DNA from: Bacillota bacterium
GTDB taxonomy: Bacteria > Bacillota > Clostridia > Saccharofermentanales > Saccharofermentanaceae
Reading direction: 5' to 3'
Length of the DNA: 64,000 bases
NCBI GenBank assembly: GCA_036782995.1
Contig: DAIPXZ010000001.1
Span: 1 to 64,000, forward strand
The notes below the pieces were generated by a model that saw nothing but the letters and a program-made list of their open reading frames with translations, was not told the origin of the DNA and did no database searches. A program made the position numbers and the translations under genes. This document shows, in pieces, positions 20,094 through 34,159 of the stretch (positions within the stretch are counted from its first letter, which is position 1; each line of letters opens with the position of its first letter).

Positions 20094-21488
20094 ATGAAGA
20101 ACAAAGAACTATACAAAATTGCTTTGGCCCTCGCCGTGCCGATGATGATTCAAAATGCTATCACTAATATGGTTGGTATGGTCGACAGCATCATGGTCGG
20201 AAGCCTTGGCACCGAAGCCATCACCGCTGTCTCCATTATCGGACAGCTTATTTTCGTCTTTAATCTCGGCATCTTCGGTTGCCTCTCCGGCCCCGGTATT
20301 TTCGGCGCACAATACTTTGGCAAGGGCGACCTCGAAAATGTCCGCAACACTTTCCGATTGAAGCTTTGGCTCTCCACACTCGTGGTTTTACTCGGCACGC
20401 TCGTTTTTATTTTCGGTGGAGACTTTCTCATTGCCCGGTATTTGCGAGGAGAGGCCGCCGACGTCGATTTGTCACTAACCGTTTCCATGGCCAAGGATTA
20501 CCTCGCGATTATGCTCTTCTCATTTCTGCCCTTTGCGTACACACAAGTATACGCAGGTACTCTACGCGAAACAGGAAGCTCCATTCCCGCCATGGCAGCA
20601 GGAATCGTCTCTGTCGTGACAGATATTGTTCTCAATTATTTGTTCATCTTCGGAAAATTCGGATGCCCACAGCTTGGTGTCCGTGGTGCCGCACTCGCGA
20701 CGGTCATTGCTCGTGTCGTCGAGTTTGTCGTGCTCGTCTCTTGGGTGCATTGGAACAAACATCGCTATGAGGTCATTCGCGGTATCTATCGTACCGTCCT
20801 TTTGCCCATTAAGCTCGCTCTCACTATCGTAAAAAATGGCTTGCCAATATTTCTAAACGAATTTATGTGGGCGGCAGGAATCGCAGTCATGACGCAATGC
20901 TATTCCATCCGTGGCATGGATATCGTTCCGGGGCTCAATATTGCCAATGTTTTAATGAATTTGTTTAATGTCGTTTTTATCGCCATGGGAAATGCCGTCG
21001 GTATTCTTTCGGGGCAACGTCTCGGTGCCTCAGAATTCGATCGTGCGAAAAAAGATGCCTTTGCACTCGCCCGATTCACCGGCCTGCTTTGCCTCGGATT
21101 AACAGTCATCTTATTGGGTTTATCCCAGTTCTTCCCGAACCTATACCACACATCAGATCAGGTGCGTCATCACGCGACACTTTTTATCATGATTCAAGCT
21201 GCTTTTTTACCCGTTCAGGGCATACTCAACGCCCTCTATTTCACCATTCGTTCTGGCGGTAAAACCATGATTACATTCTTGTTCGACAGTGTTTATTCCT
21301 GGGTAATTACTGTGCCGATTGCATTTCTTCTTTCCAATTTTACCGGGATATCCATCTTCATCATCTTCACCATCATCCAATGCTGTGATGTGATAAAGCT
21401 CTTGGTCGGCTGGTACCTCGTAAAAAAAGGCGTTTGGATTGTAAACATCGCTAATGCAAAAGGAAGCTCGGAGTCTGCTTCTACTTAA
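20094..21488 (+). CDS. MATE-family efflux transporter
   Basis: 464 aa, 12-TM pattern. The N-terminus LALAVPMMIQNAITNMVGMVDSIMVGSLG is typical of MATE. Confidence 0.9.
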   Translation: MKNKELYKIALALAVPMMIQNAITNMVGMVDSIMVGSLGTEAITAVSIIGQLIFVFNLGIFGCLSGPGIFGAQYFGKGDLENVRNTFRLKLWLSTLVVLLGTLVFIFGGDFLIARYLRGEAADVDLSLTVSMAKDYLAIMLFSFLPFAYTQVYAGTLRETGSSIPAMAAGIVSVVTDIVLNYLFIFGKFGCPQLGVRGAALATVIARVVEFVVLVSWVHWNKHRYEVIRGIYRTVLLPIKLALTIVKNGLPIFLNEFMWAAGIAVMTQCYSIRGMDIVPGLNIANVLMNLFNVVFIAMGNAVGILSGQRLGASEFDRAKKDAFALARFTGLLCLGLTVILLGLSQFFPNLYHTSDQVRHHATLFIMIQAAFLPVQGILNALYFTIRSGGKTMITFLFDSVYSWVITVPIAFLLSNFTGISIFIIFTIIQCCDVIKLLVGWYLVKKGVWIVNIANAKGSSESAST

Positions 21489-22635
21489 CCTTCGGAGGCA
21501 ATTTCAAAGAGGGAATCTTTGGCAATGCCAGACCCTTTTTTCTGTGTTCCTTTAAATTCAGATAGACCAAAATACGAATCGTGTCGATGATGTTTTCCTT
21601 CGTTTTGGCGTCAATTGATTTTGTCGCTTCGAGGATAGAATTCGCCTTATCACGCCACGTATCAGAGATTTCAAACACATTCTCCGTTCTGCTCGCTTGG
21701 ACAATATGGTAAATCGTATCGGCCACCGCGCGGCGTTTTTCGTCAGAAAGCGTCGCCACCCATGCATTCACCGTATTTACACGAATCTCCGCCTGCGGCG
21801 ATACCTCAGACGCATAGATGAAATCCGTCGCACCAACATACCAGGTAAACGGATCGTGTTGCGAAAGCCACATCGAAGTGCTCTCTACGATTTTGTGATT
21901 CGTCGGTATCTCCAAAAGCTGGCCAACCAATGAGGCCTTCGGAATATAATGCTCCACCTTATCACGAATTGGCTCGTATTCGGGAAGCTCGTGTATCGGA
22001 ATCTTGTACCCCGGACCATCAAAAGAATAGACCTTTTCAATTCGTTTCTGCACATCAAGTGGTGCATATGTTGCTGCGTACATCGCGCAATTTCCGCCCT
22101 TTGAATGTCCACCAACGAGAAGCTTTATTTTTTTCGGAAGATGTTTTGCCGCGTCCAAAAGATATGACAGTGCGTCTGCCTGGCAACCGACAGGAAACAT
22201 CGCCGCCATGTTAAAGTCTTCCTTCCATCCAACGAAGGTTCCGTTCGTTCCGCGATACGAAATATATGCCATCTCGTCGTCGATATTGCATGTCACGGCC
22301 GCAAATTGCTCTTCTTTCCCCAGGTCTTCAATCTCATGAAACCGCGTTAATTCAATCAATGAAAACCGTTGGCTTACTCGAATCGCTTCATAAAGCAGAA
22401 AACACTCGTCCGGAGAGGCAATTCTTTCAATTAGCGGAATCGCCGCCTCTTTCGCGGGCAACTCCCTGATGAGAATCTTTGAAGGACAAGGAGACCCTTT
22501 CCTGAGATAGTCCCCAATCACGAGCTCCCAATGGAAATAGCTGATATGAGATAGAATTACAGCATCCACCGAATTAAACGGTAACTCTTCAAAGGTACGT
22601 TGTTCTTCTTCGGCATATTGGATAATACTTCGCAT
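21481..22635 (-). CDS. DUF2974/Mbeg1-like alpha/beta (lipase-fold) protein
   Basis: LLVGGHSKGGNCAMYAA nucleophile elbow. I moved the start to ATG 22635, behind GGAGGG. Confidence 0.6.
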   Translation of the reverse strand: MRSIIQYAEEEQRTFEELPFNSVDAVILSHISYFHWELVIGDYLRKGSPCPSKILIRELPAKEAAIPLIERIASPDECFLLYEAIRVSQRFSLIELTRFHEIEDLGKEEQFAAVTCNIDDEMAYISYRGTNGTFVGWKEDFNMAAMFPVGCQADALSYLLDAAKHLPKKIKLLVGGHSKGGNCAMYAATYAPLDVQKRIEKVYSFDGPGYKIPIHELPEYEPIRDKVEHYIPKASLVGQLLEIPTNHKIVESTSMWLSQHDPFTWYVGATDFIYASEVSPQAEIRVNTVNAWVATLSDEKRRAVADTIYHIVQASRTENVFEISDTWRDKANSILEATKSIDAKTKENIIDTIRILVYLNLKEHRKKGLALPKIPSLKLPPKVK

Positions 22636-22750
22636 CGTGAATCCCTCCACACATCATAAACACTAGAAGTGGTATTAATTTGCAAAATAATTTTACCATA
22701 TTCTCGCCATCATTTTTACGCATTCAATCATTTATCTTATGAATGGTATC

Positions 22751-25807: not shown

Positions 25808-25851
25808 CTCTGCTCCATAAACACAAACTCTCCGGAGGAAGAGCGGATGGA

Positions 25852-26764: not shown

Positions 26765-28240
26765 TTATGCTTTCGTAACGGTAGCTGCAGATGATGTTTC
26801 CGCAATCGCTTCGCCAGCTCCCGCCAAATCAGCGGCATCGGCAACATTTTTCGCATTTACAGCAGAAGTATCCATCTTCTTTCCTAAGTAATCAGGAAGC
26901 TGCATACCTGCCATCTCAAAGATTTCATTCATCGGAGGCACGCTCTTCATAAGTCCGGATACAAAGTTCGCTGTGGAGCTTTTGCCGTCGCCATTGCTTC
27001 CTGCGCCGCTGTCCCAAACAGTAACCTTGTCGATCTTCAAGTCGCGGATTGCTTCGACCTGAATCTTCATCAAGGCCTCCATCTTATCGGCGAGCATGAG
27101 CATCATAGCATCTTTCGCATTGCCACCAGCAGCATCGACAATTTTCTCGAAACCAGCAGCTTGCTTGGTCAAAATCTCTTGCATACCACGAGCTTCTGCT
27201 TCCATCTTTGCATAGATAGCACTTGCTTCACCAACGGCTTGACGGCGAATTCTTTCACCTTCTGCTTCAGCAGCAAGCTCGATTTCACGTTTCTGAATCT
27301 CTGCCTTTACGATAACATCAGCTTCGAGTGTTGCTTTCTCACGAGCAGAACGAGAAAGCTCAGCTTCTTTTTCTGCAAGATATGCTTCTTCGAGGGCTTT
27401 AGCGGCTTGTACCTTTTCTGCAGCGATTGCGATACGCATCGACTCAGCAGCCTTCTCACGACGAAGCGCTTCGGATTGTGCAACTTCAATCTTCGCAGTG
27501 TTTTCACCTTGGATTGCGAGAGAGTTCGCAGATGCAACCTCGATACGCTGATCCTTCTGAGCAATCGCTTCACCAATAGAACCGTCGCGCTCTTTTTCAG
27601 CAACGTTCTTCTTCGCATCGTTGATTGCTTTTGCGGCAGCTTCTTTACCAAGAGCGGAGATATATCCGGATTCATCACTGATATCAGTAACGTTAACGTT
27701 AATCAAGCGAAGACCGATTTTCTTCAATTCTGTTTCCACGTTGCGGGAAACTGCTTCGAGGAACTTATCACGGTCGGTGTTGATTTCTTCGATGTCCATC
27801 GTTGCAATAACCAAACGAAGCTGACCGAAAATAATATCCTTCGCAAGGTCCTGAATGTCAACTAAATGAAGTCCGAGAAGACGCTCAGCTGCGTTTTGCA
27901 TAACGCCTTGTTCTGTCGAAATACCGACGGTAAAAATCGAAGGTACGTCAATACGAATGTTCTGACGAGAAAGAGCGCTCTTTAAGTCAACCGAGATAGA
28001 AATTGGTGTCAAATCGAGATAAGCATAAGATTGTATAATCGGCCATACAAAAGATGCACCACCATGAATACAACGAGAAGATCTTGTCGATCCATCCGTA
28101 TTTTTACCGACTTTACCATAGATGACCATGATGCGGTCAGAAGGGCACTTTCTAAAACGAGAAAGGAAAATCAGTAAGCAGGTAAATGCCAACACAGCAA
28201 CAATGATAAGAACAACGAGTACTTCAAAATCAAATGGCAT
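26765..28240 (-). CDS. flotillin-family (SPFH/band-7) protein, FloT/YuaG-like
   Basis: 491 aa. It has an N-terminal TM, an SPFH domain, then a long Ala/Glu-rich coiled-coil region (EAAAKAINDAKKNVAEKE...AEKEAELSRSAREKATLEADV...). Confidence 0.9.
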   Translation of the reverse strand: MPFDFEVLVVLIIVAVLAFTCLLIFLSRFRKCPSDRIMVIYGKVGKNTDGSTRSSRCIHGGASFVWPIIQSYAYLDLTPISISVDLKSALSRQNIRIDVPSIFTVGISTEQGVMQNAAERLLGLHLVDIQDLAKDIIFGQLRLVIATMDIEEINTDRDKFLEAVSRNVETELKKIGLRLINVNVTDISDESGYISALGKEAAAKAINDAKKNVAEKERDGSIGEAIAQKDQRIEVASANSLAIQGENTAKIEVAQSEALRREKAAESMRIAIAAEKVQAAKALEEAYLAEKEAELSRSAREKATLEADVIVKAEIQKREIELAAEAEGERIRRQAVGEASAIYAKMEAEARGMQEILTKQAAGFEKIVDAAGGNAKDAMMLMLADKMEALMKIQVEAIRDLKIDKVTVWDSGAGSNGDGKSSTANFVSGLMKSVPPMNEIFEMAGMQLPDYLGKKMDTSAVNAKNVADAADLAGAGEAIAETSSAATVTKA

Positions 28241-28256
28241 AGTATAATCCTCCTAT

Positions 28257-29252
28257 TTATTGTTTGGTTACGATCAGAGTATTACCACGTGTAATTCCAA
28301 TTACAGTGACAGATGCTCCGGTCGGAATCAACTGTTTATCATCAGTAACCGCATCAAATTCAGTTATTTGTTCTTGAACGGTTACCATGATTTTTCCAGA
28401 ACGCTCACGTGAAGCGGGAATCGGCAGATATGTTTCTCCGCTCTTTCTGAGCGCATACCGTATGTCCATCGTTCCGTCGTCCTGAAGCTTCAGCATCCCC
28501 CACATTGCCAAAGCCATTAAAAACATTGCAGCAAATCCACATATGAAAGCGAGGAAGGATGCCACAATAATGGGCAGACCCGCATGAATAAATATTAACC
28601 CTGTCCATCCGAAGATGCAAGCAAAGGCGATAATCCCCTGCATGGTAAAAAGGCGAAGCCCTGTACCATGTGTCTTGTCTGCAAGGTCGTGATAGACATT
28701 GTCTTGCGGCAGATGCGAGTCATCGATTCCAGCATCCTGTGGAAGTGAATGTGTCATATGAATCGTATCTATATAGATATCGCCAGGTAATGCGCCGGGG
28801 TGTAAAACCTCGACTGGGATATGCCCCCCGAGATCCCCATGCAGGTCCCCTTGAATATCTCCGAAATGTCCGTCAATATTCCCTGCATGAGAATCACCGA
28901 AGTATGCGTCACCCAATTGGGTATTCCCCAAATGAGCGTCTCCCATGGGAGTGTCTCCCATGTGACTTCCGAAGTCCCCCAAATGGCCATCACTAAGGTT
29001 CGTATCCCCTAAGTGAGTCCCCCCCATATGACTCCCGAAATCACCGGAATGACCCCCACCAAAATGAGCATCACCGGCGTGACCGCCTAGGTCAACATCG
29101 TGTCCGCCAAAATCCGGACCCGAATGTGCCGCACCTAAAATGAGTAGAATAGTTTCAAAAAACAGTAGCACTGCACCGACTATACCGATGCACGCATAGA
29201 TTTGTTCTACCAGCTCCATGCTTTCGAACCAATTAATGAACCATGCAAACAT
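28257..29252 (-). CDS. NfeD-like membrane protein with a ~155-aa His/Gly/Asp-rich insert
   Basis: The C-terminal OB-like segment GKIMVTVQEQITEFDAVTDDKQLIPTGASVTVIGITRGNTLIV and its position directly upstream of flotillin match NfeD/YuaF logic. The low-complexity insert spans aa 42-196. Confidence 0.7.
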   Translation of the reverse strand: MFAWFINWFESMELVEQIYACIGIVGAVLLFFETILLILGAAHSGPDFGGHDVDLGGHAGDAHFGGGHSGDFGSHMGGTHLGDTNLSDGHLGDFGSHMGDTPMGDAHLGNTQLGDAYFGDSHAGNIDGHFGDIQGDLHGDLGGHIPVEVLHPGALPGDIYIDTIHMTHSLPQDAGIDDSHLPQDNVYHDLADKTHGTGLRLFTMQGIIAFACIFGWTGLIFIHAGLPIIVASFLAFICGFAAMFLMALAMWGMLKLQDDGTMDIRYALRKSGETYLPIPASRERSGKIMVTVQEQITEFDAVTDDKQLIPTGASVTVIGITRGNTLIVTKQ

Positions 29253-29275: not shown

Positions 29276-29797
29276 TCAGCTTAATAATAGCTTCTCAGCT
29301 TCATGCTTTAAAACAATAGATAAGTGAGCGACATAAAGAATGGTGAGAAGCTTTTCTGCCTGCACTTTGCTGGTTCTTGTGTAATCCAACGGTACAAAAT
29401 CGATGGACTCTTCTACGAACTCCGCAAGCTTTGTCTCACTTCGAATTGGATCCGATGGTGTAAGAGAAAGCAAATGGCAAAAGGCTTTGTATACGAGATC
29501 ATCTTGTCCCACATACCTCAAAAGCTCGAGGATTTGTTCCAATGCAAACACATCCTTGAAGTAATTGAGGAGGGCGAGTCGCACAAACCGACTTCGGTCA
29601 TATAGCTTCTTGACCGGAGAAGGAATGAATCCGCGTTTTACCCAATTCTGTACGGTGTGTGGTTCAACACCGATGAGCTGTGTAATCTGTCTTAACTGCA
29701 TCCCCTCTGATAAAAACATCGGCCCATAGATTAAATCAACATCAGCTAAGTGCGACTGATTGACTTCTATCGTGGTACCGGGTAATCGAAAGGTCAT
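29276..29797 (-). CDS. HTH DNA-binding protein (MerR-like/DUF1836-like)
   Basis: 173 aa. MQLRQITQLIGVEPHTVQNWVKRGFIPSPVKKLY is HTH-like. It is the first gene of the flotillin operon. Confidence 0.5.
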   Translation of the reverse strand: MTFRLPGTTIEVNQSHLADVDLIYGPMFLSEGMQLRQITQLIGVEPHTVQNWVKRGFIPSPVKKLYDRSRFVRLALLNYFKDVFALEQILELLRYVGQDDLVYKAFCHLLSLTPSDPIRSETKLAEFVEESIDFVPLDYTRTSKVQAEKLLTILYVAHLSIVLKHEAEKLLLS

Positions 29798-29997
29798 ATT
29801 GTGCGCCTCCTTTCCGTTCGATGGTTGAATTATATCAGACGGTCACTTGACTGTCAACAACGTTCGCGCGATTTTTTGGCATTGTTTTCTGTTCGGAATT
29901 GTGAATGCCTTTTCATCTATTTCCTGCCGCAAAAGAAAACAAATATGTATTAATGCATGGTAAAATGAATTCAACCTATGAATCGGAGGACACGATA

Positions 29998-30948
29998 ATG
30001 ACATGTACTTCATATTCATTTACTAGCGCTGATGGCGCTACTTCTATTCAATACTTTGTTTGGCCGCCAAAGTCTGCTGCGCGCGGTGTAATGCAAATCT
30101 CGCACGGTATGTGTGAATACATGGGACGATATGACGAGATGGCGGAATTTTTAAAACGAAAAGGTTTTGTTGTTTGCGGACTCGATCATTTGGGACATGG
30201 CGAATCGGTTGGTGAAAAGGATACATTCGGCTATTTTGGAAAGAAATATGGGCCGGATTTTCTCGTAGAGGATCAGGAAAAGCTACATCGTATTATGACT
30301 GACCTATACCCTGATGCGCCCTATATTATGTACGGACATTCGATGGGTTCATTTATCGCGCGACTTTGGTATGAAAAGTACGGTAACGATATTTCAGCCG
30401 TGATTTTCTCAGGCACAGCGACAGCTAATCCACTGGCAACGCCGCTTAAAGGCTTGGCACATCTTTCGATTCTTTTGCGTGGTGACAGAAAGCCAGCCGA
30501 CTTCATCGGGCGCACGATGTCGAAGGTATATACATCAAAGATTGAAAAGGTGCAAACCAACTCAGACTGGATTTCGCATGATTCGGACATAGTAAAGAAG
30601 TATGTGAATGATCCGTTTTGTAACTATACGTTTACGGATCGCGGGTATATTGACCTTTTCACAATGTTAGCGCGATGTAATCGCAAGAAGTGGTTTGCGA
30701 AGATTCCGAAGGATAAGCCGATGCTATTATTGTCGGGCACAGAAGATCCGGTCGGTGACTATGGCAAGGGCGTGATGATAGTAACGAAGAAGCTGCAAGA
30801 ATCAGGACAGAACCGCCTCATCATCGATCTTCGCTCGGGTATGCGTCACGAGCCACATAACGAGATAAATCGCAAGGTGATTTATCAACGACTTGAGGCT
30901 TTTCTGGTTGAAGTCGTGGAAAAGAACGGAAAAAAATCTGAAGTCTAA
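29998..30948 (+). CDS. alpha/beta hydrolase (lysophospholipase/monoacylglycerol-lipase-like)
   Basis: HGMCEY...GLDHLGHGES...MYGHSMGSFIA (GHSMG nucleophile elbow). Start at ATG 29998, behind GGAGG. Confidence 0.75.
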   Translation: MTCTSYSFTSADGATSIQYFVWPPKSAARGVMQISHGMCEYMGRYDEMAEFLKRKGFVVCGLDHLGHGESVGEKDTFGYFGKKYGPDFLVEDQEKLHRIMTDLYPDAPYIMYGHSMGSFIARLWYEKYGNDISAVIFSGTATANPLATPLKGLAHLSILLRGDRKPADFIGRTMSKVYTSKIEKVQTNSDWISHDSDIVKKYVNDPFCNYTFTDRGYIDLFTMLARCNRKKWFAKIPKDKPMLLLSGTEDPVGDYGKGVMIVTKKLQESGQNRLIIDLRSGMRHEPHNEINRKVIYQRLEAFLVEVVEKNGKKSEV

Positions 30949-30980: not shown

Positions 30981-32531
30981 TTACAGTATCGGAGCAAACA
31001 GGCGGAGAATTTGGCGTGCGACACTCCACGTTGGGTTATAACGTAATTCTTCAGGAAGAAGCTCATCAGAGACATCAAGGATTTGCATGAAATCTTCTTT
31101 GACGGACGCAATAGAGGGCGTATCGAGAAGCCAGACACCACATTCAAAATGAAGATAGAGGCTGCGATAATCGAGGTTGACTGTACCTACTGTTGCGCAA
31201 CGATCATCAACGATGAAGGCTTTGCTGTGGATGAAGCCAGGTGTGTAGGTGTATATTTTGACCCCTGCGGTAACGAGATCACGGAAAGAGGAGCGCGAGG
31301 CCTGGTATATTATCCATTTGTCCCATTTTCCCGGTGTAACAATACGCACGTCTATCCCGCTTTTGGCGGCGAGACAAAGGGCTGAAATCATGGAGTCGTC
31401 GATAATGAGATATGGCGTACTAATGTAGATGTATTTTTGAGCGGTTGTAATCATATGCATGTAGACGTGTTCAGATACATGCTCTGAATCAATCGGGGAA
31501 TCACAATAGGGTTGCACGTAGCCTTGAGTAGCTGAAAGTGTCGGCGGAGCTTCGTTCTTCCACGGATAAAAATCATAATAGTTATCTGGCGCTTTCTGCG
31601 CGATTTGCCATATTTCAAGGAAAAAGAGTGTGAGCGACCAAGCCGCCTCACCACGAACCATAATGGCAGAATCCTTCCAGTAGCCATGCTTTTGTATGAC
31701 GTTGATATATTCGTCAGAGAGATTGATACCGCCCGTGAACGCGCATTTCCCGTCGATTGCCGTGATTTTTCGGTGGTCACGGTTGTTTTGAATGGTCGTC
31801 ACAAAGGGCGAAAACGGGTTGAAGATGATACACTTTATTCCTTTGTCCTGCATATTCTGACGAAAGTGTTTTGGCAAGGTTAAAAAACAGCCAACATCGT
31901 CATATATGATACGAACTTCGATGCCCTGCGCGGCTTTGCGTTCGAGAATATCAATAATCGCATCCCACATAACGCCATTTTCGATGATAAAGTATTCCAT
32001 GAAAATGTATTTCTCCGCTTTTTCGAGTTCCTCCAAGAGGCGCGGAAAGAAGACTTCTCCCGGAGTAAGAAATTCGGTCTCTGTATTGGAATATACGGGA
32101 AAGCCCTCCTGCATGTCGAGATAGCGCATGTTGACCGTATAGGAAGGAGCATCATGTCGTGCACGAAGATGAGCGGTTTTTACCGATGGTGGCAATCGAA
32201 AGAGAGGGCGTACCTCTGCTTCGACACGTGCCGATGCGCGCACATATGATTTTGTCGTTCGTTGGTTGTTAAAGAAGATGTACATGACACCGCCGATTGT
32301 CGGCATAAGCAAAACAAGAAAAACCCAAATGAGCTTATACCCGCCCTTGTCTTTTTTACTGACAACATAGAGCGCGACGAGCAAGCTTAAGAGACGAAAC
32401 AGCAATGAGATGATACCGGAATAGCTGCCACCAATTAAAATGAGAACCACAAGAACCCCGATTTCCAATAGAATCAGAAAGCAGAAAAATATGCGACGTA
32501 AGATAAATGAAGGAAACAAGTGATTTCTCAT
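30981..32531 (-). CDS. cls: cardiolipin synthase
   Basis: Two N-terminal TM helices and two PLD HKD motifs (HRKITAIDG and HSKAFIVDD). 516 aa. Confidence 0.9.
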   Translation of the reverse strand: MRNHLFPSFILRRIFFCFLILLEIGVLVVLILIGGSYSGIISLLFRLLSLLVALYVVSKKDKGGYKLIWVFLVLLMPTIGGVMYIFFNNQRTTKSYVRASARVEAEVRPLFRLPPSVKTAHLRARHDAPSYTVNMRYLDMQEGFPVYSNTETEFLTPGEVFFPRLLEELEKAEKYIFMEYFIIENGVMWDAIIDILERKAAQGIEVRIIYDDVGCFLTLPKHFRQNMQDKGIKCIIFNPFSPFVTTIQNNRDHRKITAIDGKCAFTGGINLSDEYINVIQKHGYWKDSAIMVRGEAAWSLTLFFLEIWQIAQKAPDNYYDFYPWKNEAPPTLSATQGYVQPYCDSPIDSEHVSEHVYMHMITTAQKYIYISTPYLIIDDSMISALCLAAKSGIDVRIVTPGKWDKWIIYQASRSSFRDLVTAGVKIYTYTPGFIHSKAFIVDDRCATVGTVNLDYRSLYLHFECGVWLLDTPSIASVKEDFMQILDVSDELLPEELRYNPTWSVARQILRLFAPIL

Positions 32532-32539
32532 TTTAAATG

Positions 32540-34159
32540 CTATTCATTATCCTCCGAATCGTCGCCTTCATCCTCAAAGGTATCACAAAGGAGCGACGGC
32601 GTGCTGAAGTAGTATCCTTGGAGATAGTCCGCACCTAAGCTGGTGCAAATCTCGGCAAGCTTGCGATTCTCGATGCCTTCCGCAACGACTTCAATCGCGG
32701 AGCTCTTCGCAAAATCGATGATGCTCTTCACGAGAGCGAGACCGCTTTCTGTTGTGACTTTACTAATCAGCGAGCGATCAATCTTGATTATATCAATTGG
32801 GAGATCCGTTACTAATCCATAGTTTGCCATGCCAGCTCCGAAACCGTCGATAACAATGGAAACACCGTGGTTACGAAGAAATTGTAGGTTTTCACGGGTT
32901 TGGTGTAAATCCGAAGCGAAGTTGCCGCGCAATTCGACCAAGACCTTCGCCGGGTCAACATTAGCTTCTTTGAGCGTCCGAATAAACTCCATGATGTTTT
33001 TTTCGTTAATGTCTTCTGCCGTCAGATTGATTGAAATCGGAAGGTCTTTGTATTGTGGTAGCTTCGAATACTCGATAAGACGCTTGGTCATGAAAATAGT
33101 AAGGTCGTGAATAACGGCAGTTTGTTCGATGACAGGAACGAATTCATCTGCCATCATACGAGTACCGTCTTTTCGTACCCATTTCGCTAACAATTCGATG
33201 CCGCCAACTTCATATGTGCCGCCGCGATGAACGGTCTGGTAAGCAGCTTGAATCGAGTTATTGCTCAATGCGTTCGGAAATTCGGATGCGATGCTGACGA
33301 TACCGCGATAGTAATCTTCCATACCAGGAGAGAAGCGGCAAATTCTTAATTCCTTCATAAAGGAATATCGCATAGCGACGTTGGAACGACTCATCAGTCT
33401 TTCCATGGTCTCCCCTTTTTCATGTGTTGCGAAGCCGCCGCGGAATGCGATGAACACCGGTACATTTTCGACATTAAGTGTCGTTTCATTTAGCTTTGAA
33501 AGTGTCACAATCAGGTCTTCGAGATTGTCTTTCTCGTTCGGATGACGTACAAGAACAGAAAATTCGAGTCCCGAATCATGGAAAATTTGCGCATGTGGAT
33601 ATGCTGTTAATGCCTTTTGTATTTCATTTGAAAAAGAAGCGATGATCTTATTATAGAATGTATATCCGAAAAATCCCTGTAGATCATTACCATCAACAAC
33701 GGACAATGTCACAAGAGAGACGGAACGGTCATCAAAGAGGATTTCTTGTTGTAATGCCTCATAATTTTTCAATCCAGTGAAACGATCAGTAGTTGCAAGA
33801 TTCATCATTTCGGCACTTCTTTTCCGGTTGTCGGTCGAGAAGGCAGATACGAGTAATGCAATAGCAATATAGATAAATACTCGAACACCCCACGCAAGAG
33901 AAAAGCTCCAAGAGGTCTGTTCGAGAACAATGGCCTCAATCGGTCCGACACCAACGCCGCAAATCAATGCAAATATGATACTGTTCGGTACAGAATACAG
34001 GCAGGACACAATCGCGATTAGAAGATACATAATATTGGCATATGCATTCGGTGTTCCGCCCGTCCGATATACGAGATAAACGACGGCCGCAGCCCCGATA
34101 TATGAAATCAGTATTGGAATGACCTTCATTAAACCATTTGTTGACTCATTCTTGCTCAT
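32540..34159 (-). CDS. membrane-anchored degenerate-GGDEF plus EAL domain protein (c-di-GMP phosphodiesterase candidate)
   Basis: N-terminal TM block. A GGDEF-like domain has SGLEF in place of GGDEF. The EAL domain has GIELLAKW, DGFG and ...EGIE motifs. Confidence 0.85.
   Translation of the reverse strand: MSKNESTNGLMKVIPILISYIGAAAVVYLVYRTGGTPNAYANIMYLLIAIVSCLYSVPNSIIFALICGVGVGPIEAIVLEQTSWSFSLAWGVRVFIYIAIALLVSAFSTDNRKRSAEMMNLATTDRFTGLKNYEALQQEILFDDRSVSLVTLSVVDGNDLQGFFGYTFYNKIIASFSNEIQKALTAYPHAQIFHDSGLEFSVLVRHPNEKDNLEDLIVTLSKLNETTLNVENVPVFIAFRGGFATHEKGETMERLMSRSNVAMRYSFMKELRICRFSPGMEDYYRGIVSIASEFPNALSNNSIQAAYQTVHRGGTYEVGGIELLAKWVRKDGTRMMADEFVPVIEQTAVIHDLTIFMTKRLIEYSKLPQYKDLPISINLTAEDINEKNIMEFIRTLKEANVDPAKVLVELRGNFASDLHQTRENLQFLRNHGVSIVIDGFGAGMANYGLVTDLPIDIIKIDRSLISKVTTESGLALVKSIIDFAKSSAIEVVAEGIENRKLAEICTSLGADYLQGYYFSTPSLLCDTFEDEGDDSEDNE

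Follow-up and report, generated by a model that had tools for sequence, protein, structure and literature searches.

A 64,000-nucleotide (nt) stretch of DNA from a Bacillota bacterium of the Saccharofermentanaceae (positions 1 to 64,000 of contig DAIPXZ010000001.1, assembly GCA_036782995.1; hereafter the window) carries, directly upstream of a flotillin gene, a gene for a 331-amino-acid (aa) NfeD-like membrane protein, which we call the query. Its first transmembrane (TM) helix is separated from the other two by a long loop rich in His, Gly, and Asp. Comparison across the family shows that relatives also have an acidic, Gly-rich loop here, and that the query's is an extreme form of it, expanded in its lineage. 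Our best reading of the sequence evidence is that the loop may act as a selected, disordered, multivalent tether that binds cations or protons beside the flotillin-docking domain.

The loop lies between TM1 and the TM2/TM3 hairpin and covers residues 44–196 (153 residues, nt 28665-29123). A preliminary description of this DNA had pointed to a repetitive, His/Gly/Asp-rich segment of about 155 aa between the first TM helix and the later TM block, with about 20 His and recurring HLGD and GDxxG units. That segment (28665..29129, residues 42–196, 155 aa) contains 33 Gly, 24 Asp, 20 His, 1 Glu, 1 Lys, and no Arg, which confirms the composition, as the positions of the TM helices do the placement, and makes the number of His exactly 20. 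When the other long open reading frames (ORFs) of the window were used to set the expectation (His 1.7%, Gly 6.0%, Asp 5.8%, Lys plus Arg 10.4%), the segment was enriched in His (20 vs 2.7 expected, P=5e-12), Gly (33 vs 9.3 expected, P=2e-10), and Asp (24 vs 8.9 expected, P=1e-5), and depleted in Lys and Arg (1 vs 16.2 expected, P=7e-7).

There are 11 GD and five H-hydrophobic-G-D units in the query loop, and Asp is preferred at −2, −4, and +3 from His. The units described earlier are thus present, though as a loose, pentapeptide-like, and degenerate pattern and not as a strict repeat; strict periodicity was looked for and left only a weak signal (autocorrelation z ≤2.9 at lags 5, 7, and 12). 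The low-complexity repeat is also shorter than had been described. It is confined to residues 44–145, whereas residues 146–196 are non-repetitive, carry the motifs D-V-H-x-G-D-I-Y and G-I-x-D-x-D-L common to relatives, and align with VVVDVHSGDIYLA…GPDVGIPDQDLPDGRTYVDRADKxHG of a clade of long-loop relatives that is introduced below. At the DNA level, Tandem Repeats Finder gave one tandem trace of 15 nt x 2.3, and a few repeats of 17–18 nt are 72–83% identical. A recent slippage array was rejected on the basis of this short trace, the 72–83% identity of the direct repeats, and the roughly 72% match within the (GHDx)n array of the relative L014. No DxDxDGxxD motif occurs in the query loop, a Pfam search with the isolated loop gave no match, and there was no match among PDB sequences; the loop of L014 matched PDB sequences only through low complexity, to an (EEVG)n tract of Plasmodium P230. 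AlphaFold assigns residues 44–196 a predicted local distance difference test (pLDDT) score of about 40, and on this prediction the loop is intrinsically disordered.

The gene itself is well supported. Its ATG is preceded by a Shine-Dalgarno sequence (GGGGAGGA), and gene calls on 10 public contigs from metagenome-assembled genomes (MAGs) give an identical protein. We considered and rejected a spurious ORF or the wrong strand, since the minus frame has 49 homologous protein clusters and the Shine-Dalgarno sequence, whereas plus-strand and alternative-frame ORFs (e.g. 28670..28996) are unsupported.

Outside the loop the AlphaFold model has a pLDDT above 90. It contains helices at residues 14–43, 204–223, and 228–260, followed by the strands of the OB domain at 271–276, 286–292, 295–303, 314–320, and 325–330; hydropathy likewise indicates a three-helix N-terminal membrane anchor before the beta domain. 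The top five PDB matches of the model in Foldseek were all NfeD OB domains (2K14, 3CP0, 8Z5G, 2K5H, and 3WWV; E 1.6e-4 to 4.3e-4, probability 1.00), including Bacillus subtilis YuaF (2K14, E=1.6e-4), Escherichia coli YbbJ (8Z5G), MTH693 (2K5H), and PH1510-C (3WWV). The query does not reach the curated cutoff of the Pfam NfeD model (PF01957, 29.1 bits), scoring 15.8 bits (E=0.016) over residues 298–330; 19 of 42 family members match this model at E<0.01, the best at 2.8e-4. A search of PDB sequences with the family profile found YuaF only at E=0.43, and its top hits were spurious designed beta-propellers. Membership in NfeD therefore follows from the modelled OB fold and the conserved order DUF1836-nfeD-flotillin and not from the Pfam score. 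On fold and gene context, and leaving the curated sequence model aside, the query is a genuine NfeD protein that partners a probable flotillin. This bears out the preliminary description, which had called it an NfeD-like partner of flotillin: the five best structural matches are NfeD domains, and a Band_7 gene starts 16 nt downstream. The pairing of NfeD with flotillin and the OB fold were already known (PMC2636767, PMC11222466, PMC11237479), and binding of the OB domain to its SPFH partner has been reported for FloA and NfeD of Staphylococcus aureus (PMC11222466) and is seen in the QmcA–YbbJ structure (8Z5G).

To place the loop in its family, we conducted a profile search, which returned 4,761 representative clusters at E≤0.001 and 2,932 at E≤1e-10. 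In the 149 best full-length representatives the loop was delimited by the near-invariant columns Gly40 and Gly198. In all 149 this segment is acidic and Gly-rich, contains far more Asp than Glu, and ranges from 22 to 187 aa (median 54). Lys and Arg are absent from 125 of these loops, and the median content of Asp plus Glu is 28%. His makes up at least 10% of 43 loops (29%) and at least 15% of 24, with a median of 3.8%. Pooling 224 unique loops gave 22.7% Asp, 3.3% Glu (a ratio of 6.9:1), 8.9% His, 18.9% Gly, and 0.7% Lys plus Arg, compared with 2.7% Asp, 4.2% Glu, and 0.5% His in the rest of the same proteins. The preliminary description had stated that short proteins of the YuaF type lack such an insert. 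This is correct for canonical short NfeD proteins, which have 140–150 aa, three hydrophobic stretches, and a beta domain, with no long loop (PMC2636767). However, the loop is not unique to the query but universal in its subfamily.

The units that make up the loops vary. Those of His-rich loops differ by lineage (GHDF, DHFDG, LHMDHGAD, HTD[LMI], and AHD[LFM]D), and one to three copies of DLDGDG[IV]PD occupy the same loop position in relatives, among them Pseudoflavonifractor capillosus and Lawsonibacter. Pairs of the form C-x(0-3)-C, mostly CDxC, occur among the His of six loops where 1.3 were expected from shuffles, some of the six being related. The cysteine pairs read CDSC, CDTC, and CDAC, also CALC and CNCC, and are found in L039, L041, and L047, which are MAGs of the Pseudoflavonifractor type, and in P0096, P0119, and P0140. 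The loop has been built independently in different lineages, either from His/Asp repeats or from units resembling calcium sites.

Among the best 150 clusters at 50% identity, only the query and cluster P0023 exceed 300 aa. P0023 comprises about 25 species of Clostridia MAGs from rumen and gut, with loops of 167–192 aa of the GHDxGHD type. We refer to it as the long clade. It comes almost entirely from MAGs of ruminant and other animal guts, and includes relatives with GHGHD and (GHDx)n tracts in which His are spaced by 2–5 residues. In our tree the query and P0023 are mutual nearest relatives and the next neighbours are not His-rich, so the simplest history would be one loop expansion in their common ancestor. 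The neighbor-joining tree is deep and, at 170 columns, weak, and on it parsimony found the His-rich state no more clumped than random labels. We read this scatter, with the caution that such a tree calls for, as lability. In the literature, which we covered incompletely, we found no account of an acidic or His-rich TM1–TM2 loop as a hallmark of an NfeD subfamily, nor of purifying selection on it. Searches that combined NfeD with histidine, zinc, nickel, or disorder found nothing, and no such loops were found under NfeD/flotillin or YqiJ.

We then asked how the loop evolves over shorter distances. In eight close species pairs of the long clade, the ratio of nonsynonymous to synonymous substitution rates (dN/dS, by Nei-Gojobori) was 0.03–0.09 in the loop and 0.03–0.14 in the TM and OB parts, at a loop dS from about 0.2 to >1. 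His residues of the loop were kept in 24/24 to 30/30 cases in the six closest pairs and in 22/23 to 26/29 in the more divergent ones, and six of the eight pairs had few or no loop indels. Loop conservation was similar in pairs from Christensenella and Pseudoflavonifractor. Variants of the query lineage from different samples showed no change in loop length and one loop substitution. The loops hold 20–31 His vs 0–8 Asn and 3–4 Tyr, all three of which are one step from Asp codons. These substitution patterns show that in the sister long clade purifying selection maintains the loop sequence, and especially its His. Between the query and the long clade, identity is 40% in the loop and 61–65% elsewhere. 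The picture that this suggests is of a lineage-specific design that is tightly held once acquired and turns over at great distance. As a separate observation, dS itself was 2–4 times higher in the part coding for the loop than in the part coding for the TM and OB regions (L014/L022, L016/L019, L011/L012, L020/L021, and others), with equal dN/dS in both; codon-usage constraint, recombination, and an artefact of the estimator for Gly, Asp, and His codons are candidate causes.

These data bear directly on whether the loop is simply a neutral, low-complexity expansion produced by replication slippage and devoid of function. The great differences in length and sequence between distant relatives (22–187 aa), the unclumped His-rich state on the deep tree, and the disorder in the AlphaFold model are what such an expansion would give. 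The preliminary description had taken absence or high variability of the insert even in close relatives as the mark of neutrality. High variability is indeed seen between distant relatives, but within the long clade the loop is strongly conserved. The low dN/dS together with almost complete conservation of His strongly disfavours neutral expansion. The scarcity of indels in six of the eight pairs, the constant length in the query lineage across samples, the family-wide exclusion of Lys and Arg, and the match of only about 72% between repeat units at the DNA level, which makes them old, point the same way. We consider a neutral origin without function to be extremely improbable.

The side of the membrane on which the loop lies affects what it could bind. 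TM2 and TM3 form a tight hairpin with a turn of four residues, which puts the loop and the OB domain on the same face. The family mean number of Lys plus Arg is 0.13 in the N-terminal tail, 0.97 before TM2, 0.46 in the TM2–TM3 turn, and 2.07 after TM3, and the N-terminus of the query's flotillin reads DFE-TM-RFRK. In S. aureus the OB-like domain of NfeD is cytoplasmic and binds FloA (PMC11222466). From the clustering of Lys and Arg, the flanks of the flotillin helix, and the S. aureus topology (PMC11222466), the loop and the OB domain very probably face the cytoplasm. The preliminary description had proposed a topology prediction for the loop, and this charge distribution together with the literature points to a location inside the cell.

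If the loop were instead extracytoplasmic, its ligands at the membrane's outer face could be Ca2+ or cations associated with the wall. Translocation is feasible for highly acidic loops, and the DxDGDG[IV]PD units of relatives resemble the DxDxDG calcium sites of thrombospondin type-3 repeats. Such sites are typically extracellular. However, the hairpin ties the loop to the face of the OB domain, which in NfeD is cytoplasmic and binds flotillin (PMC11222466). The positive charges lie before TM2 and after TM3 and not in the N-terminal tail, the TM segment of flotillin is followed by RFRK, the Pfam TSP3 matches are below threshold, and CDxC pairs suit a reducing compartment. An outward-facing loop is very unlikely in our estimation.

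From the composition, the preliminary description had suggested binding of divalent metal (Ni, Zn, or Cu) or a response to pH. Several features of the loops lend this some support and suggest specific coordination chemistry over generic charge: the excess of Asp over Glu and of His over Asn and Tyr, the Cys pairs, and the DxDGDGxPD units, all within a Gly-rich, flexible chain. In the mechanism we propose, the repeated D-x-H-hydrophobic-G-D units would provide many weak, adjacent sets of His and Asp ligands that together would form a multivalent binder of divalent cations with low to moderate affinity. His-rich versions of the loop would favour Zn2+, Ni2+, or Co2+, and the Asp-only and DxDGDGxPD versions of relatives Ca2+ or Mg2+. 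Whether through bound cations or through protonated His, the loop would lose much of its charge of about −22 and become compact, and compaction could alter how the NfeD/flotillin scaffold packs or what is admitted at the membrane patch. The loop would then serve as a polyelectrolyte tether whose charge can be tuned, with no part in catalysis or transport. Overall, the mechanism we favour is a multivalent tether that binds cations through His and Asp, although we hold it tentatively, as something short of an even chance. Judged by its residues, metal binding by the loop is chemically likely; that it has a physiological role is the weaker claim.

A number of points weigh against cation binding as the role of the loop. 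Free Zn and Ni in the cytoplasm are buffered to very low levels, and weak sites might rarely be occupied. The His of the query are spaced by 3–15 residues, mostly 5–10, with no HH or HxH; classical high-affinity tracts are denser, and wider His spacings bind less strongly than HxHxH (PMC8773511). The matches of relatives' loops to Pfam TSP_3 and TSP3_bac are sub-threshold (E 0.06–0.2). The 15 neighbouring genes include no metal transporter, metallochaperone, or metal-sensing regulator, and the DUF1836 protein has no obvious metal-ligand motif in its sequence. The cytoplasmic placement is itself a probable one, and the selection test covers the sister long clade, the closest sequenced relative of the query being about 47% identical to it.

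Protons might take the place of metal. As a pH-titratable charge switch, the loop would go upon acidification from an anionic, extended coil to a near-neutral state that is collapsed or adheres to the membrane, and so tune the assembly of NfeD and flotillin without metal. Henderson-Hasselbalch calculations give the query loop a net charge of −22 at pH 7.5, −9 at pH 6.0, and −6 at pH 5.5, and the long-clade loop of L014 goes from −32 to −7 over pH 7.5–5.5. The counts of His (about 20) and acidic residues (about 25) are nearly balanced, as they are throughout the long clade, and a hydrophobic residue recurs in every unit. The long clade is gut-derived, and acidification of the cytoplasm is common in fermenters of the rumen and gut. 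A charge switch leaves unexplained the preference for Asp over Glu, the CDxC pairs, and the DxDGDGxPD units of relatives, and it cannot be the family-wide role because most loops have few or no His (median 3.8%). We regard it as a serious rival even though, taken as the explanation, it seems rather unlikely; it is compatible with metal binding, and the two are not mutually exclusive.

A further alternative is that only charge and bulk matter. The loop would then be no more than a polyanionic spacer or an entropic brush, or would pair electrostatically with the flotillin tail or with clients; it would keep the patch clear or hold unfolded clients, and its His would merely be tolerated. What is invariant across the family is negative charge and the near-absence of Lys and Arg, and not His, and the loop is predicted to be disordered. 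FloA and NfeD have been reported to stabilise unfolded proteins through low-complexity "tentacles" (PMC11222466). Loop length also correlates with the length of the disordered C-terminal tail of flotillin (Spearman 0.75, p=4e-14, n=72 species, ignoring kinship), although this correlation takes no account of phylogeny and the query's own flotillin has no long tail. A brush predicts fast turnover of sequence at constant composition and no preference for Asp. By contrast, we observed dN/dS of 0.03–0.09, conservation of His at specific positions, and an Asp:Glu ratio of 6.9, and the recurrent, independent enrichment in His argues against a brush as well. These observations make a purely electrostatic or steric role unlikely. 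The tails themselves differ in kind: those of long-clade flotillins are rich in Ala, Pro, Lys, and Glu and often end in P-I-W, and that of the query's flotillin has 73 aa without such repeats.

Returning to the cation-binding tether, its parts can be compared with known systems. The upstream position of the gene recalls YuaF (NfeD2) of B. subtilis and YqiJ of E. coli, which likewise precede the flotillins FloT/YuaG and YqiK and share the plan of three TM helices followed by an OB-like beta domain at the C-terminus; operons of this type have been described (PMC2636767, PMC11237479). YuaF is the best structural match (2K14), but identity is only 22% over 88 columns of the OB domain. The family profile aligned to E. 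coli YqiJ by hhalign gave E=0.29, which is not significant, and none of 42 family members matched the Pfam YqiJ family. E. coli YqiJ (L084 2209..2838) too has a TM1–TM2 loop, which is free of Lys and Arg and has about 32 aa with five His and three Asp. Unlike it, the query has a repetitive loop about five times longer with 20 His, and a DUF1836 gene precedes the gene pair. In a genome-wide screen of the Keio collection, deletion of yqiJ was among 119 hits sensitive to silver (PMC6071238), a faint functional hint. YbbJ of the QmcA–YbbJ SPFH–NfeD cage (8Z5G) aligns with the query over 151 columns in Foldseek, covering the TM helices and the OB domain. This short NfeD accompanies an SPFH protein that forms a closed cage over a membrane patch (PMC12478178). 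Unlike the query, YbbJ has no long TM1–TM2 loop (148 residues in the solved chain), and its partner is of the stomatin type and not a flotillin.

For the loop itself, CDF/ZnT transporters carry His-rich cytoplasmic loops. The ZIP transporter Zrt2 has a loop between TM helices that, like that of the query, is flexible, disordered, and rich in His, Asp, and Gly (GPHTHSHFGD), and peptides from it bind Zn2+ and Cu2+ (PMC8773511). By analogy of its mode of action, the disordered His/Asp loop of Zrt2 is the closest experimentally characterised counterpart. In contrast to the Zrt2 and CDF loops, the query loop belongs to a scaffold partner without a transport pathway, has His spacings of 5–10 instead of HxHxH, and is much longer and far more acidic. 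The cytoplasmic metallochaperones SlyD, HypB, and Hpn carry tails rich in His and Asp. In their content of His, Asp, and Gly, at times together with Cys pairs, these tails are like the GHDHDFGHGHD tracts of the long clade and the CDxC loops of relatives, but the query has no homology to these proteins, and its loop is tethered to the membrane at both ends. DxDxDG motifs of thrombospondin type-3 repeats resemble DLDGDG[IV]PD of P. capillosus and Lawsonibacter; the query loop lacks this motif.

If the comparison is widened, the acidic, Lys/Arg-poor, and often His-rich TM1–TM2 loop might be a general, hitherto unrecognised regulatory module of NfeD proteins that partner flotillins, E. coli YqiJ perhaps among them. 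With dozens of copies, each flotillin assembly would then line the cytoplasmic face of the membrane patch it encloses with a polyelectrolyte layer that metal or protons titrate, and microdomain assembly or client capture would answer to cytoplasmic Zn, Ni, Ca, or pH. This extrapolation from sequence comparisons is a doubtful one at present.

We compared the locus with 80 species-level loci, which were gathered by a search with a 25-sequence alignment of closer relatives. A flotillin homologue lies directly downstream of the nfeD-like gene in nearly all of them and a DUF1836 homologue upstream in about 65. The 491-aa partner of the query, a probable flotillin, combines a Band_7 domain with a long C-terminal region of coiled coil, and scores 152 bits (E=2.7e-44) against NCBIfam FloT, far below the equivalog cutoff of 700. 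DUF1836 is a putative regulator from the clan of helix-turn-helix (HTH) proteins that was earlier tied by neighbourhood to hemolysin III genes (PMC3146951), and here its gene probably encodes the regulator of the operon. The promoter-like site upstream of it is a consensus match, in a region where the total number of such sites is not above shuffle expectation. In the literature, again incompletely covered, we found no description of a DUF1836-nfeD-flotillin operon. The coordinates of the features are listed in Table 1.

Table 1. Features of the nfeD-like gene and its surroundings in the window
Feature	Position	Strand	Basis
nfeD-like gene, 331 aa (TM1, loop, TM2/TM3 hairpin, OB-fold domain)	28257..29252	-	ORF, homologues, AlphaFold, Foldseek
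TM1, aa 14-43; N-terminal tail without Lys/Arg, probably extracytoplasmic	29124..29213	-	hydropathy, model helix 14-43
Repeat part of loop, aa 44-145; degenerate x-H-hydrophobic-G-D pentapeptide-like units; 29 Gly, 16 Asp, 13 His, 0 Lys/Arg	28818..29123	-	composition, pLDDT ~40
Non-repetitive C-terminal part of loop, aa 146-196; motifs …GDIY…, …GIDD.HLP.D…DLADKTHG common to relatives	28665..28817	-	alignments
TM2, aa 204-223; near-invariant basic G-L-R-L-F motif just before	28584..28643	-	hydropathy, model, family alignment
TM3, aa 228-260; tight hairpin with TM2	28473..28571	-	model helices, 4-residue turn
C-terminal five-strand OB-fold (NfeD partner-binding domain), aa 271-330	28263..28442	-	model strands, Foldseek, weak Pfam NfeD match
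Flotillin (SPFH/Band_7) gene, 491 aa, start 16 nt downstream of nfeD	26765..28240	-	Band_7 E=5e-27; FloT E=2.7e-44
DUF1836 / MerR-like HTH gene, 173 aa, end 23 nt upstream of nfeD	29276..29797	-	PF08876 E=2e-10; MerR_1 E=5e-5
Sigma-70-type promoter-like site TTGACA-17-TATAAT, 12/12, extended -10, upstream of DUF1836 gene	29829..29857	-	consensus match
Lipoprotein-like ORF, 226 aa	25852..26532	-	lipobox-like LSGC
Terminator-like hairpin	25827..25844		first outside coding sequence
Alpha/beta hydrolase gene, divergent	29905..30948		
Cardiolipin-synthase-like PLD/HKD enzyme gene	30981..32531	-	PLDc_2 x2, PLDc_N
EAL-domain protein gene	32540..34159	-	
Mbeg1-like protein gene	21481..22650	-	

The genes near nfeD encode the DUF1836 protein, flotillin, a lipoprotein, an alpha/beta hydrolase, a PLD-type enzyme, an EAL protein, and ABC transporters; among the neighbours examined, no link to hydrogenase or urease maturation genes was found. 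The lipoprotein-like ORF follows the flotillin gene. It has a very acidic N-terminal region rich in Thr and Glu and no Pfam match. It is present within the query's lineage, where L085 has it as a 216-aa call, and is not at the same position in long-clade loci, and the first terminator-like hairpin outside coding sequence comes after it. On the other side, the cardiolipin-synthase-like gene is two genes from the DUF1836-nfeD-flotillin operon, with only the divergent hydrolase gene between them; a gene of the PLD superfamily is also found in flotillin-YqiJ/YuaF operons of some Proteobacteria (PMC11237479). Genes for an EAL-domain and an Mbeg1-like protein lie on either side of the locus in the window and again in the long-clade relative L002, a sign that synteny between the two long-loop lineages extends more widely.

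Flotillins and the NfeD proteins that partner them occur widely in bacteria. If such loops bind cations or protons, they would provide a direct chemical input to flotillin microdomains. The loops also offer a clear case in which purifying selection acts on a low-complexity segment, predicted to be disordered, as strongly as on folded domains. For this reason, the family-wide pattern and the signal of selection are of more interest than the single insert in the query. The idea can be pursued in cultured relatives such as Christensenella and P. capillosus, and perhaps in YqiJ of E. coli.

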